A stretch of DNA of 64,000 nt. Source: Escherichia coli (lineage in GTDB: Bacteria; Pseudomonadota; Gammaproteobacteria; Enterobacterales; Enterobacteriaceae). Of this stretch, positions 60,232 through 64,000 are shown in pieces. The notes under the pieces are model-generated. The model saw only the letters and a program-made list of their open reading frames with translations. It made no database searches and had not been told where the DNA came from. The first letter of the stretch is position 1. Every line of letters starts with the position of its first letter. The stretch is taken from assembly GCF_001677475.2 (NCBI RefSeq), contig NZ_CP015229.1; one strand, 5' to 3'. The translations under genes and the position numbers were made by a program.

Positions 60232-61248
60232 TCATTCAATGCTAACCCGCGTTACGTCATCTGTTTCAGCCAGAGTAAACCGTACCGGCAAGAAACGCTC
60301 CACCACCGCGATATTGGTCAGCAGATGGCATGAGGGATGGGCAACCGTAAATTCTCCCGCGCCCGCCAGCGCCATCGGTAGCACCAGTTGGTCGGCGAGA
60401 TATTCCCCCACCGCCGCCGGGCTTGCCAGGTAGCGTTTCACCTCTTTCACTAACTGTGCCGCGACCACCTCGGCACTGACGCGCTTTTCACCGACGACAA
60501 AAAAGCGTTCGGTGATATTTTCACTTTCGACTTCAAGCGAGACGGTATTACCCGGTCCCTGGTCACGCGGCAGGTTATGAATATTCTGCTCATGCAGGGA
60601 AAAACTACCCGCCAGTGTAGCGATTTCACGCTCAGCGACATGCCTCGGCACGCCAGCTAACAGCACCTCTCCACGCATCTGCACAATGTTCCCGCGCTCG
60701 CCAAGTTGCAAAGTGTTAAACGATGCCACCGGCGAGACTTCCGTCGCCACCACCCCGCCTCCGGCAGGATAAAAACCGTGGCGTAACAGCGTGGTTTGCT
60801 GATGAATTCCCATTTTCGCCAGCAGCGGCTCCAGCACCCGGCGGATAAAATCCGCAGGCGGGGCCGACGGGTTATCGGTGCCGCCACTTACTTCAACACG
60901 CGAAGGTCCATCGGCAAACCACAGCGCGGGCAGCACCGTTTGCAGCACCAGCGTACAACTTCCTGCGCTACCGATAGCAAAGCGGTAATCGCCGCCGCGC
61001 ACGGTGCCGGGCCGGAAGACCAGACGCTGCGACCCCAGCTCCACGCCTTCCACCGTTGCCCCACAAACTTCCGCCGCCGCTTTTACCGCGGTCAGATGCT
61101 GGCGCAACAGCCCCGGTTTCGCCCGCCCGGCACGAATGCCGGTGATGGTAAATGGCTTGCCGGTTATCATCGACAGACTCAACGCCGAGCGCAGGATCTG
61201 CCCGCCGCCCTCTCCCTGTGCGCCATCCAGCGCAATCATCCTTTTCAT
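60232..61248 (-). CDS. rtcA: RNA 3'-terminal phosphate cyclase
   Basis: Track ORF 60232-61251 (MMKRM...); second Met taken as start (338 aa); start may be 61251. Confidence 0.85.
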
Positions 61249-61251
61249 CAT

Positions 61252-62478
61252 TTATCCTTTTACGCACACCACCTGACGCAGGGTGTAGATAACTTCCACC
61301 AGATCGCTTTGTGCCGCCATCACCGCATCAATATCTTTATACGCCATCGGGATTTCGTCGATCACTTCGGCATCTTTACGGCATTCCACATGCGCGGTGG
61401 CACGAATTTGATCTTCCACGCTGAACAGTTTTTTCGCTTTAGTACGGCTCATAACCCGCCCGGCACCGTGGCTGCACGAACAGAACGACTCTTCATTTCC
61501 CAGCCCACGGACGATAAAGCTTTTCGCTCCCATCGACCCTGGAATAATTCCATATTGACCAGCACGCGCAGACACCGCGCCTTTACGCGTCACGTAGATC
61601 TCTTCACCAAAGTGCTGTTCTTTTTGCACATAGTTGTGGTGACAGCTGATCTCTTCCATCGCCAGCGTTTGTGGCTGTCTGACCGTTTTCTGCGTAATGC
61701 TCTGCAACGCCGTAACCACGTTTTCCATCATCGCATCACGGTTAAGGCTGGCAAAAAGCTGCGCCCAGGCCACAGCTTTCAGGTAATCATCAAAGTATTC
61801 CGTGCCTTCCATAAAGTACGCCAGATCACGCGACGGCAACGTCTCAAGCGTTTCCTGCATCTCTTTTTGCGCCAGATCGATAAAGTAAGTCCCGATGGCG
61901 TTACCAATTCCGCGTGAACCGGAGTGCAACATAATCCACACCTGGTCCGACTCATCAAGGCAGATTTCAATAAAGTGGTTACCCGTTCCCAGCGTTCCCA
62001 GGTGTTTATAGTTGTTAGTGTTAAGGAAACGCGGATATTTTTGCGTTAACCACTGATAACCGGCTTCAAGCTCAGCCCATTTCGCATCGACGTTAACAGG
62101 CGGGTTTTCCCATGCGCCTTTATCACGTTTACAACGCCCGGTAGTACGCCCGTGCGGCACGGCAGTTTCAATGGCCTGACGCAGTTCCGCCAGGTTTTCC
62201 GGCAGATCTGCCGCCGTTAACGCGGTACGCAGTGCGTTCATTCCACAACCGATATCCACGCCCACCGCTGCAGGAATAATCGCCCCTTTGGTCGGGATCA
62301 CGCTACCAATGGTGGAACCTTTACCCAGGTGCACGTCAGGCATTACCGCAATATGTTTGAAAATAAACGGCATCTTCGCCGTATTAATAAGTTGCTGACG
62401 CGCATCGGCTTCTACCGGCACGCCTTTGGTCCACATTTTTACCGGGGCATTTTCAGTGGTCAGTAATTCGTAATTCAT
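61252..62478 (-). CDS. rtcB: RNA-splicing ligase RtcB
   Basis: 408-aa ORF; recognised RtcB; stop abuts rtcA start. Confidence 0.9.
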   Translation of the reverse strand: MNYELLTTENAPVKMWTKGVPVEADARQQLINTAKMPFIFKHIAVMPDVHLGKGSTIGSVIPTKGAIIPAAVGVDIGCGMNALRTALTAADLPENLAELRQAIETAVPHGRTTGRCKRDKGAWENPPVNVDAKWAELEAGYQWLTQKYPRFLNTNNYKHLGTLGTGNHFIEICLDESDQVWIMLHSGSRGIGNAIGTYFIDLAQKEMQETLETLPSRDLAYFMEGTEYFDDYLKAVAWAQLFASLNRDAMMENVVTALQSITQKTVRQPQTLAMEEISCHHNYVQKEQHFGEEIYVTRKGAVSARAGQYGIIPGSMGAKSFIVRGLGNEESFCSCSHGAGRVMSRTKAKKLFSVEDQIRATAHVECRKDAEVIDEIPMAYKDIDAVMAAQSDLVEVIYTLRQVVCVKG

Positions 62479-62515
62479 TTTGTTTTTCTCTTTTCATTGT
62501 TTGCTGTCCTGATAA

Positions 62516-62532
62516 TTGCAACCGTCGTGCCA
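62516..62532 (-). promoter_or_regulatory. Sigma-54 (-24/-12) promoter of rtcBA
   Basis: Minus-strand reading TGGCAC-gacgg-TTGCA (rev-comp of ttgcaaccgtcgtgcca), a near-consensus RpoN promoter about 40 bp upstream of rtcB. Confidence 0.75.
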
Positions 62533-62666
62533 GAAAATTAAATAAGCAGATTAATTTTTTTATTCATTGTTTTAAAAAAGATTATATCTTTACGTCCGTA
62601 ACCGGAGATTTCCCGCAAAGCCGATTTACCGATAATGAAATATCGTCTTTTATAAGGATATCTAAG

Positions 62667-64000
62667 ATGCGTAAAACAGTGGCTTTTGGCTTTGTCGGTA
62701 CCGTACTGGATTATGCCGGACGCGGCAGTCAGCGCTGGTCAAAATGGCGTCCGACACTCTGTTTATGCCAGCAAGAATCGTTGGTCATCGATCGACTGGA
62801 ATTATTGCACGACGCCCGCTCGCGCTCGCTATTTGAAACGCTTAAACGCGATATCGCCAGCGTTTCGCCAGAAACAGAAGTGCTGAGCGTTGAGATTGAA
62901 CTGCATAACCCGTGGGATTTCGAAGAGGTTTACGCCTGCCTGCATGATTTCGCCCGTGGTTACGAGTTTCAGCCAGAAAAAGAAGACTATTTAATTCACA
63001 TCACCACCGGCACCCACGTCGCGCAGATTTGCTGGTTTCTGCTGGCGGAAGCGCGTTACCTGCCCGCCCGGTTGATACAATCTTCACCTCCGCGCAAAAA
63101 AGAACAGCCGCGCGGCGCAGGTGAAGTGACGATTATCGATCTCGATTTAAGCCGTTATAACGCCATCGCCAGCCGCTTTGCCGAGGAACGCCAGCAAACG
63201 CTTGATTTTCTTAAGTCCGGCATTGCCACGCGTAACCCCCTCTTCAACCGCATGATTGAGCAGATTGAAAAAGTGGCGATTAAATCCCGCGCACCGATCC
63301 TGCTTAACGGCCCGACCGGCGCGGGTAAGTCGTTTCTGGCACGACGAATTTTCGAATTAAAACAGGCGCGGCATCAGTTTAGCGGCGCGTTTGTGGAAGT
63401 GAACTGCGCCACCTTGCGTGGCGATACCGCCATGTCGACGCTGTTTGGTCATGTAAAAGGCGCGTTTACCGGGGCGCGGGAATCTCGTGAAGGTTTATTA
63501 CGTAGCGCCAACGGCGGAATGTTGTTTCTTGATGAGATTGGCGAACTGGGCGCAGACGAACAGGCAATGCTGCTAAAAGCCATTGAAGAGAAAACCTTTT
63601 ACCCATTTGGCAGCGATCGCCAGGTGAACAGTGATTTTCAGCTTATCGCCGGAACGGTGCGCGATTTGCGCCAGCTGGTTGCCGAAGGCAAATTTCGCGA
63701 AGATCTGTACGCGCGGATCAATCTCTGGACCTTCACCCTGCCGGGTCTACGCCAGCGCCAGGAAGATATTGAACCGAACCTGGATTATGAAGTGGAGCGC
63801 CACGCCACACTCACTGGTGACAGCGTGCGTTTTAACACCGAAGCGCGGCGTGCCTGGTTGGCTTTTGCGACCTCTCCCCAGGCGACATGGCGCGGTAACT
63901 TTCGCGAACTTTCCGCCAGCGTCACGCGGATGGCCACCTTTGCCACTAGCGGACGCATCACTCTGGCCGTGGTTGAAGATGAGATAAACCGTCTGCGCTA
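62667..64000 (+). CDS. rtcR: Sigma-54-dependent activator of rtcBA (N-terminal CARF-like sensor, AAA+ domain), 3' end beyond window
   Basis: ATG at 62667, frame open to window end (I translated it manually); Walker A GPTGAGKS and GAFTGA motif present; not in ORF track because no stop lies in the window. Confidence 0.85.

Follow-up and report, generated by a model that had tools for sequence, protein, structure and literature searches.

An Rtc RNA-repair locus organized as in Escherichia coli K-12, with an exact-consensus sigma-54 promoter and a candidate RtcR enhancer

The window analyzed here, a 64,000-nucleotide stretch of E. coli DNA, ends in an rtc locus (60232 to 64000) in which rtcB and rtcA lie in tandem on the minus strand, while the 5′ part of rtcR runs in the opposite direction, separated from rtcB by an intergenic region of 188 nt (62479 to 62666) that has the identical length in K-12 (Table 1). 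Both the gene order malT-rtcA-rtcB-rtcR and the orientation are those of E. coli K-12 MG1655 (b3422, b3421, and b4475). A sequence-only reading of this DNA had recognized a divergent rtcR/rtcB-rtcA module, and this was confirmed by the open reading frames, by family models, and by synteny with MG1655, in whose alignment order, orientation, and promoter all match. The Pfam families RTC, RTC_insert, RtcB, RtcR, and Sigma54_activat were all matched above their cutoffs.

Table 1. Coordinates of genes, protein domains, and regulatory elements at the rtc locus
Feature	Position	Strand	Description
REP-like hairpin	60194-60219	.	Convergent malT/rtcA gap; 8-bp stem AGCCGGAT/ATCCGGCT, 10-nt loop
rtcA	60232-61248	-	RNA 3′-terminal phosphate cyclase; 338 aa, RefSeq-style start
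rtcA, longer ORF	60232-61251	-	339 aa; in-frame ATG at 61249-61251, older numbering
rtcB	61252-62478	-	RNA 3′-phosphate/2′,3′-cyclic phosphate to 5′-OH ligase; 408 aa
rtcBA leader (inferred)	62479-62506	-	28 nt; inferred transcription start C62506
rtcBA sigma-54 promoter	62532 to 62517	-	TGGCACGACGGTTGCA (TGGCAC-GACGG-TTGCA); exact consensus TGGCAC-N5-TTGCA, 16 nt
IHF-like site	62560-62572	-	AAACAATGAATAA; centre 34 nt upstream of the T of TGGCAC
Candidate RtcR enhancer (UAS)	62628-62672	.	Phased GATA/TATC boxes; conservation across ~70 rtcR loci
Core palindrome of candidate enhancer	62630-62645	.	CGATA-N6-TATCG
GATATC box	62657-62662	.	Between rtcR Shine-Dalgarno sequence and ATG
rtcR, 5′ part	62667-64000	+	ATG at 62667; codons 1-444 of 532 (K-12 RtcR, 532), runs past window end
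RtcR CARF-type sensor domain	62670-63221	+	Pfam RtcR PF06956, residues 2-185
RtcR sigma-54 AAA+ domain	63228-63731	+	Sigma54_activat PF00158, 172.7 bits
RtcR Walker A	63309-63332	+	GPTGAGKS, residues 215-222
RtcR GAFTGA motif	63459-63476	+	Residues 265-270
RtcR AAA lid	63750-63989	+	Pfam AAA_lid_14

RtcB covers the full Pfam RtcB profile (444.8 bits) and is 99.5% identical in amino acid sequence to its K-12 counterpart, with 43 nucleotide differences and 2 amino acid changes. Residues D75, C78, H168, H185, H281, H337, and R341 are all present, and we take the first five to be metal-binding ligands. The NCBIfam scan returned no RtcB model at the cutoff, and the RtcB assignment therefore rests on the Pfam match and on the identity with K-12. 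H337 is the position altered in the catalytic mutant H337A (PMC5175333). RtcA matched Pfam RTC (271 bits) and RTC_insert as well as the NCBIfam equivalog NF003247 (771 bits; cutoff, 333), and shares 96.8% amino acid and 95.0% nucleotide identity with K-12. Its adenylylated histidine, His308 in the 338-residue numbering and His309 in the 339-residue numbering, is retained; an H308A mutant of RtcA was used in PMC5175333. The rtcA start adjoins the rtcB stop codon (61252 to 61254), and an AAGGA Shine-Dalgarno sequence lies within the end of rtcB, which makes translational coupling from rtcB to rtcA likely.

RtcR can be followed to position 64000, where the window cuts off the last 88 codons (445 to 532) and with them the DNA-binding helix-turn-helix. 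The earlier description of the module as intact thus stands for rtcA and rtcB, while for rtcR it is not showable within the window. The N-terminal sensor domain is complete, as had been claimed, with a match to positions 1 to 183 of the 183 in the Pfam RtcR profile (286.8 bits), and the Walker A and GAFTGA motifs ascribed to the protein were both found (Table 1). Despite its truncation, RtcR scored 745.6 bits against the NCBIfam equivalog RNA_repair_RtcR (cutoff, 650; profile positions 1 to 440 of 530), and the visible part is 98.4% identical in amino acid sequence to K-12 RtcR. A PDB sequence search with RtcR gave matches on the AAA+ domain alone (from about residue 175 onward) and no relatives of the CARF-type domain.

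Over 7.6 kb, the region diverges from K-12 by ~3% of nucleotides (230 mismatches and one gap). The best identity to any complete E. coli genome is 96.4% over this region, compared with 98.1% for a nearby 20-kb stretch, and the window is 96 to 98% identical to E. coli, 93 to 95% identical to Escherichia sp. MOD1-EC7003, and 90.9% identical to E. whittamii. On its identities to E. coli, the strain belongs to a lineage without a close relative among the complete E. coli genomes of the collection. The locus might be a decaying or nonfunctional copy, with whole-looking genes but no working system in this lineage. It is dispensable in E. coli. In ~587 of 5,426 complete genomes (~11%) it has been deleted, and just a scar of ~520 bp remains, in which the 3′ ends of rtcA and rtcR are joined. 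The greater divergence of the region, the 11 amino acid changes in RtcA, three of which cluster at residues 325 to 331, and the location of the rtcR 3′ end beyond the window would also fit decay. However, no internal stop codon interrupts rtcA, rtcB, or the visible part of rtcR, the substitutions relative to K-12 are mostly synonymous (7 amino acid changes for 35 nucleotide differences in rtcR and 11 for 51 in rtcA, besides those in rtcB given above), and the catalytic and motif residues that were checked, including Walker A and GAFTGA, are kept. Neither the promoter nor the candidate enhancer differs from K-12, and the 4 intergenic substitutions spare the −24/−12 element and the core palindrome. 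We consider decay very improbable and take 60232 to 64000 to be an E. coli-like strain's chromosomal locus for Rtc RNA repair, organized as in K-12 and expected from its sequence to be functional (probability, roughly 0.96). No observation speaks against this identification.

Upstream of rtcB lies a sigma-54 promoter with its −24 GG at 62531/62530 and its −12 GC at 62519/62518. The sequence-only reading had placed a near-consensus promoter at 62516 to 62532; the promoter is present, but that span is one base too long, the element occupying 62517 to 62532 (16 nt rather than 17), and “near-consensus” understates a match that is exact. No second exact match occurs in the 64-kb window (0.13 expected from shuffled sequences; 10 of 100 shuffles contained at least one), whereas matches with one mismatch allowed are at chance level in the window (5 found versus 3.75 expected, the others lying at 15651, 25909, 36360, and 45004), so that the case for the promoter depends on exactness and position combined and not on the motif by itself. 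The motif and its flanks, tttcTGGCACGACGGTTGCAATtatc, agree in every base with the sigma-54 promoter reported for rtcB, which spans −54 to −37 relative to the ATG of that gene (PMC2831329), and the assignment withstood this comparison, which had been set in advance as its test. Identity with K-12 extends over 26 nt, and the same sequence is the K-12 sigma-54 ChIP-seq site OS35 (PMC4591121). The promoter is an invariant block in the alignment of rtcR loci. In ~70 of 80 loci from Klebsiella, Pseudomonas, and betaproteobacteria, TGGCAY-N5-YYGCW occupies the corresponding place upstream of rtcR, and the layout of a divergent rtcR and an rtcB-containing operon with a −24/−12 promoter between them recurs in related loci.

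That the motif is a chance or silent sigma-54 site and rtcBA is driven by another promoter seems improbable in the extreme: E. coli does have many silent or intragenic sigma-54 sites (PMC4591121), one-mismatch matches are no more frequent in the window than by chance, the native rtc promoter has very low activity in vitro, and rtc expression can rise under some conditions without dependence on RtcR (PMC9650030), but the exact match has no second copy in the window, occupies the published position relative to rtcB with the sequence bound in K-12, has equivalents upstream of rtcR-linked operons at ~70 loci, and faces no competitor in a simple sigma-70 consensus scan of 60000 to 63000, in which neither strand of the intergenic region showed a promoter-like site. 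That scan did not find an rtcR promoter; GATAAT at 62631 to 62636 was considered as a sigma-70 −10 element and dropped for its poor −35 (3 of 6 at best). For the rtcBA sigma-54 promoter, counting from the GC at −13/−12 (62519/62518) puts A(−1)C(+1) at 62507/62506, and transcription would thus start at C62506. The ApC primer used on the native promoter (PMC9650030) agrees with this start, and the value of 28 listed for rtcB (PMC4591121) agrees with the length of the predicted leader.

Enhancers of sigma-54 promoters are expected roughly 80 to 150 bp upstream, and many, though not all, of these promoters have an IHF site in between. The sequence-only reading had suggested a scan for IHF and upstream activating sites between 62533 and 62666; comparison of ~70 rtcR loci yielded one candidate of each kind. 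The IHF-like site has 2 mismatches to WATCAANNNNTTR, compared with 1 in K-12 and none in many Pseudomonas loci at equal distance; the extra mismatch, a T-to-A change at 62561, makes it weaker here than in K-12. Across 72 loci, 53 IHF-like matches (at most one mismatch) at the corresponding position fall into the 35-to-39-nt bin, and in 28 of these loci a perfect match lies 30 to 60 nt upstream. “The rtc IHF binding site” is mentioned in PMC9650030, where its coordinates are not given. We regard it as the probable site of DNA bending.

The GATA/TATC boxes, about 100 to 112 nt upstream of the −24 element, form the sole invariant intergenic block besides the promoter in the alignment of rtcR loci. 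In 69 nonredundant loci, the motif stands at a constant distance from the −24 element, namely, 97 to 99 nt in Escherichia, Klebsiella, and Intestinirhabdus and 109 to 113 nt in Pseudomonas, so that the enterobacterial and Pseudomonas distances differ by about one helical turn; the end of the block is 97 to 113 nt from the −24 element in at least 60 loci. A matrix trained on 59 nonenterobacterial sites (leave-clade-out) and scored over 127,922 window positions gave its top score, 12.2 bits, to 62632 to 62671 on the minus strand, with the runner-up at 2.7. Promoter, IHF-like site, and GATA-box block keep their positions in ~70 loci from three proteobacterial groups, and the block is likely to be the RtcR enhancer. 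In a more specific model, for which we see even chances, the enhancer would be an array of GATA/TATC half-sites with ~10-bp spacing, conserved from Escherichia to Pseudomonas and lying on one helix face relative to the −24 element. In Escherichia, the array overlaps both the start codon of rtcR and its 5′ untranslated region, so that RtcR bound there might regulate its own gene too.

In the literature searched, no paper contained the sequence of this block, and none gave an RtcR footprint or enhancer; Genschik et al. 1998, reportedly the original rtc promoter paper, lay outside the search, and the site may already be defined. A reporter with the 175 nt that precede the ATG of rtcB, corresponding to 62479 to 62653 here, is active in an RtcR-dependent manner, so that this stretch is enough (PMC5175333). 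This fragment includes the core palindrome and excludes the GATATC box, indicating that the latter is not essential for activation. An “rtcBA UAS” was also combined with an IHF site in a hybrid promoter (PMC9650030), again with no UAS sequence given.

[quoted passage not shown] Damage to the translation apparatus generates RNA ends, in particular nicked tRNAs or 5′ tRNA halves with a 2′,3′-cyclic phosphate, that bind the CARF domain, as shown in Salmonella; tRNA halves with the cyclic phosphate bind CARF and make RtcR oligomerize (PMC7790460). In E. coli, RtcA and RtcB themselves bind the CARF domain (PMC9650030) and, according to the literature, are required for activation. RtcR may then oligomerize on the upstream enhancer, which conservation places at the GATA/TATC block and its core palindrome, and bending of the DNA at the A/T-rich IHF-like site could bring it to the sigma-54 holoenzyme at 62532 to 62517, where sigma-54 would bind as it does to the identical sequence in K-12. 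ATP hydrolysis coupled through the GAFTGA loop would open the promoter, and rtcB-rtcA mRNA would be made from near 62506. With the relevant residues in place, RtcA is predicted to convert RNA 3′-phosphates to 2′,3′-cyclic phosphates via a His-AMP intermediate, and RtcB to join 3′-phosphate or cyclic-phosphate ends to 5′-OH ends via His337-GMP. RtcR- and sigma-54-dependent induction and the cyclase and ligase activities have been demonstrated in K-12, whose proteins are nearly identical to these (PMC5175333, PMC9650030).

Salmonella Typhimurium rtcR/rsr-yrlBA-rtcBA also has a divergent rtcR and a near-identical sigma-54 promoter, TGGCACGCTGGTTGCAAT (PMC3844500). In contrast to the Salmonella operon, the window has no rsr (Ro60) or Y-RNA genes between promoter and rtcB, which begins 28 nt past the predicted transcription start. 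An Rfam scan of 59800 to 64000 (E value ≤ 1) detected no RNA families, consistent with the absence of Y-RNA or tRNA-like elements as found in the Salmonella and Pseudomonas operons. The pspF/pspABCDE system likewise pairs a divergent activator gene with a sigma-54 promoter. In psp, the enhancer adjoins or overlaps the 5′ region of the activator gene itself, and an IHF site separates it from the promoter. PspF lacks a sensor domain like the CARF-type domain of RtcR, and the AAA+ domain of PspF is a distant match to that of RtcR (~100 bits); the two are analogous and not one family. The effector proteins of psp feed back on the activator, a comparison with rtc that has been drawn in PMC9650030.

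The Rtc system itself is already known as a characterized stress response, which repairs broken tRNA and rRNA and makes cells transiently tolerant of ribosome-targeting antibiotics (PMC12606134, PMC5175333), and the locus is an ordinary one, of slight significance beyond correct annotation. A whole copy in this strain is mildly informative, given the ~11% of complete E. coli genomes that have deleted the locus. The coordinates of the candidate enhancer and of the IHF-like site provide a concrete target for explaining how RtcR takes its place at a promoter of low in vitro activity.

At the other end of the locus, the convergent malT/rtcA gap holds a REP-like hairpin (−14.8 kcal/mol on the plus strand and −12.3 kcal/mol on the minus strand; z score, about −1.8). 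A terminator consensus scan of 60000 to 63000 gave 4 matches versus 4.0 expected, the chance level, and a canonical intrinsic terminator was ruled out for the hairpin, which has no T-run. It is probably a transcript-end or stabilizing structure. The 4 positions at which it differs from K-12 (60202, 60204, 60208, and 60210) all belong to the loop, and the stem sequence is that of K-12.

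The sequence-only reading had described 60232-64000 as a known RNA-repair module with rtcR divergent from rtcB-rtcA, and both points hold. The rtcR-rtcBA system is already known: Pfam, NCBIfam (for RtcA and RtcR), identity to K-12, and the MG1655 gene order agree. In MG1655 the gene order is identical, glpR comes next, and rtcR comprises 532 codons. By megablast, the region is matched in 5,424 of 5,426 complete E. coli genomes, where it is annotated as malT, rtcA, rtcB, and rtcR. The module had also been called intact; since the last 88 codons of rtcR lie outside the window, this holds for rtcA and rtcB in full but for RtcR only in its sensor and ATPase regions.

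Features of the rtc region in window coordinates
Feature	Position	Strand	Remarks
malT	3' end at 60189	+	ORF listing, 59800-64000
malT-rtcA spacer			42 nt, holds a hairpin; reading of 59800-64000
rtcA	60232-61248	-	ORF listing
rtcA alternative in-frame ATG	61249-61251	-	339-aa form
rtcB	61252-62478	-	408 aa; ORF listing
rtcB-rtcR intergenic region	62479-62666		188 nt
rtcBA sigma-54 promoter TGGCACGACGGTTGCA	62532 to 62517	-	exact consensus match
Candidate IHF site AAACAATGAATAA	62560-62572		2 mismatches
Candidate enhancer, core palindrome CGATA-N6-TATCG	62630-62645
rtcR Shine-Dalgarno AAGGA	62654-62658
GATATC box	62657-62662		between rtcR Shine-Dalgarno and ATG
rtcR	ATG at 62667	+	444 codons, then window end
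RtcR Walker A	63309-63332		residues 215-222
RtcR GAFTGA	63459-63476		residues 265-270

The rtcA product matches Pfam RTC and RTC_insert and scores 771 bits with the NCBIfam equivalog for RtcA (curated cut-off, 333). RtcR reaches 746 bits with its equivalog (cut-off, 650), though truncated at the window end. None of the NCBIfam RtcB models reaches its cut-off with the window protein, so the RtcB assignment is based on Pfam (RtcB, 444.8 bits over the full profile) and K-12 identity. The N-terminal sensor domain of RtcR is complete, as had been claimed, with the full Pfam RtcR profile aligned to residues 2-185; it is followed by Sigma54_activat (188-355) and an AAA lid (362-441), and Walker A and GAFTGA are both present. 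A PDB sequence search with RtcR returned matches to the AAA+ domain only, from about residue 175 onward, and no solved structure covering the CARF-type sensor domain (62667-63221, residues 1-185). RtcA retains His308, and RtcB retains D75, C78, H168, H185, H281, and H337; His308 of RtcA and His337 of RtcB are positions of catalytic mutants in PMC5175333.

Protein identity to K-12 is 99.5% for RtcB, 98.4% for RtcR, and 96.8% for RtcA, and most nucleotide differences are synonymous, with 43 nt and 2 aa changed in rtcB, 35 nt and 7 aa in rtcR, and 51 nt and 11 aa in rtcA. It is unlikely that the locus is decaying, because the reading frames are open, with no internal stops in rtcA, rtcB, or the windowed part of rtcR, and the pattern of substitutions points to purifying selection.

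Among the 5,426 genomes, the best identity is 96.4% over 60100-64000 and 98.1% over 30000-50000; the rtc region has diverged more than its surroundings. Escherichia sp. MOD1-EC7003 (93-95%) and E. whittamii (90.9%) are farther away. The lineage of the window is E. coli-like and has no close relative among these complete genomes. Deletion makes the rtc locus polymorphic in E. coli: only 4,837 genomes of the 5,426 match 60232-64000 over 80% or more of its length, and about 587 retain only a scar of ~520 bp. In the scar (see L083:3501-4287), which is flanked by malT and the glpR-family gene, the final 420 nt of rtcA run directly into the final 400 nt of rtcR; rtcB has been lost together with the promoter and the greater part of both rtcA and rtcR.

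The malT 3' end and spacer (60000-60250) differ from K-12 at 33 positions in 250 nt, compared with 0 to 15 in other 250-nt bins and 22 in one. This peak, which includes MalT D885A and Q892K, may be a recombination boundary. In Escherichia sp. MOD1-EC7003 (L003:2329-2579), malT and rtcA are ~250 bp apart versus 42 nt here. Between malP and malT, ~200 nt before the start of malT, an 11-nt insertion relative to MG1655, TACCGCACAAC, occupies 57276-57286. [quoted passage not shown]

The promoter had been placed on the minus strand as TGGCAC-N5-TTGCA, which is right, although the span 62516-62532 was one base too long and “near-consensus” was too weak for an exact match. TGGCACGACGGTTGCA is the sole exact TGGCAC-N5-TTGCW match in 64 kb (0.13 expected). 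Tolerating one mismatch brings the number of matches to 5, about what chance predicts (3.75 expected); the four other matches are at 15651-15666, 25909-25924, 36360-36375, and 45004-45019. Comparison with the annotated rtcBA sigma-54 promoter, on which the sequence-only reading had staked this claim, gave identity: promoter plus flanks, tttcTGGCACGACGGTTGCAATtatc, is the same as the rtcB promoter listed in PMC2831329 between -54 and -37 relative to the start codon, with agreeing window offsets, and as OS35, a sigma-54 ChIP-seq site that PMC4591121 places upstream of rtcB. Counted from the -12 GC, A(-1)C(+1) falls at 62507/62506, leaving a 28-nt leader, the value given for rtcB in PMC4591121; the inferred start at 62506 also agrees with the ApC primer used on the native promoter in PMC9650030.

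The RtcR fragment was scanned against representative bacterial genomes, which returned 80 loci from Escherichia, Klebsiella, Intestinirhabdus, many Pseudomonas, betaproteobacteria, and Budviciaceae. Where enough upstream sequence was available, nearly all loci carry rtcB on the opposite strand upstream of rtcR, either right next to it or with ~2 kb of extra genes in between. TGGCAY-N5-YYGCW, directed away from rtcR, was found 135 to 215 nt upstream of the rtcR start in ~70 loci. This conservation, together with the identity to a ChIP-bound K-12 site, makes it unlikely that the match is a silent site.

A scan for IHF and enhancer sites, proposed by the sequence-only reading, yielded a candidate for each from conservation. 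Motif search in 69 non-redundant upstream regions recovered a composite element, TTATCC-N5-AGATAAA-N3-CGATA-N6/7-GAT(AT), made up of GATA/TATC boxes spaced ~10 bp. Its 3' edge is 109 to 113 nt from TGGCAC in Pseudomonas and 97 to 99 nt in Escherichia, Klebsiella, and Intestinirhabdus, even where the rtcR start codon is 25 to 55 nt farther off; the element is thus placed relative to the promoter and not to rtcR. A weight matrix from 59 non-enterobacterial sites only ranked 62632-62671 (minus strand) first among 127,922 window positions (12.2 bits; runner-up, 2.7; mean, -62.9). In the Escherichia/Klebsiella/Intestinirhabdus alignment, the GATA-box block and the -24/-12 element are the only invariant intergenic blocks. 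We therefore consider the GATA-box block a candidate RtcR enhancer. The RtcR-dependent reporter of PMC5175333 contains the 175 nt preceding the rtcB ATG, corresponding to 62479-62653, so the essential enhancer lies at or below 62653, with the palindrome inside and the GATATC box outside. PMC9650030 refers to a UAS for rtcBA and to an IHF site at rtc; their sequences were not found in its searched text parts.

In most of 72 loci, a match to the IHF consensus (at most one mismatch) is centered 35 to 39 nt upstream of TGGCAC, with 53 matches in that bin, and 28 loci have a perfect match 30 to 60 nt upstream. The K-12 sequence at this position, AAACAATGAATTA, has one mismatch; the second in the window's putative site is due to a T-to-A substitution at 62561.

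The mechanism is already known, and the window adds only that its sequence is compatible with a working system. The AAA+ domain of RtcR is kept repressed by the CARF-type domain of the protein; in E. coli, RtcA and RtcB are reported to bind that domain and to be needed for activation (PMC9650030). Once active and bound at the enhancer, RtcR remodels the sigma-54 holoenzyme on the -24/-12 element, and rtcBA is transcribed; RtcA cyclizes 3'-phosphate ends, and RtcB joins 5'-OH ends to 3'-phosphate or cyclic-phosphate ends.

Many Pseudomonas loci (L012-L020, L023, L024, L035, L036, L049, L054, L072; e.g., L014:4564-4707) possess two adjoining tRNA-like units (Rfam tRNA, 56 bits) within ~180 to 260 nt after the sigma-54 promoter. 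ARAGORN reported one gene resembling tRNA-Arg(TCG) and another tRNA-like gene whose anticodon has two bases, and ORFs of 484 and 132 aa lie between these units and rtcB. This operon resembles the Ro60/Y-RNA-containing version of the rtc operon.
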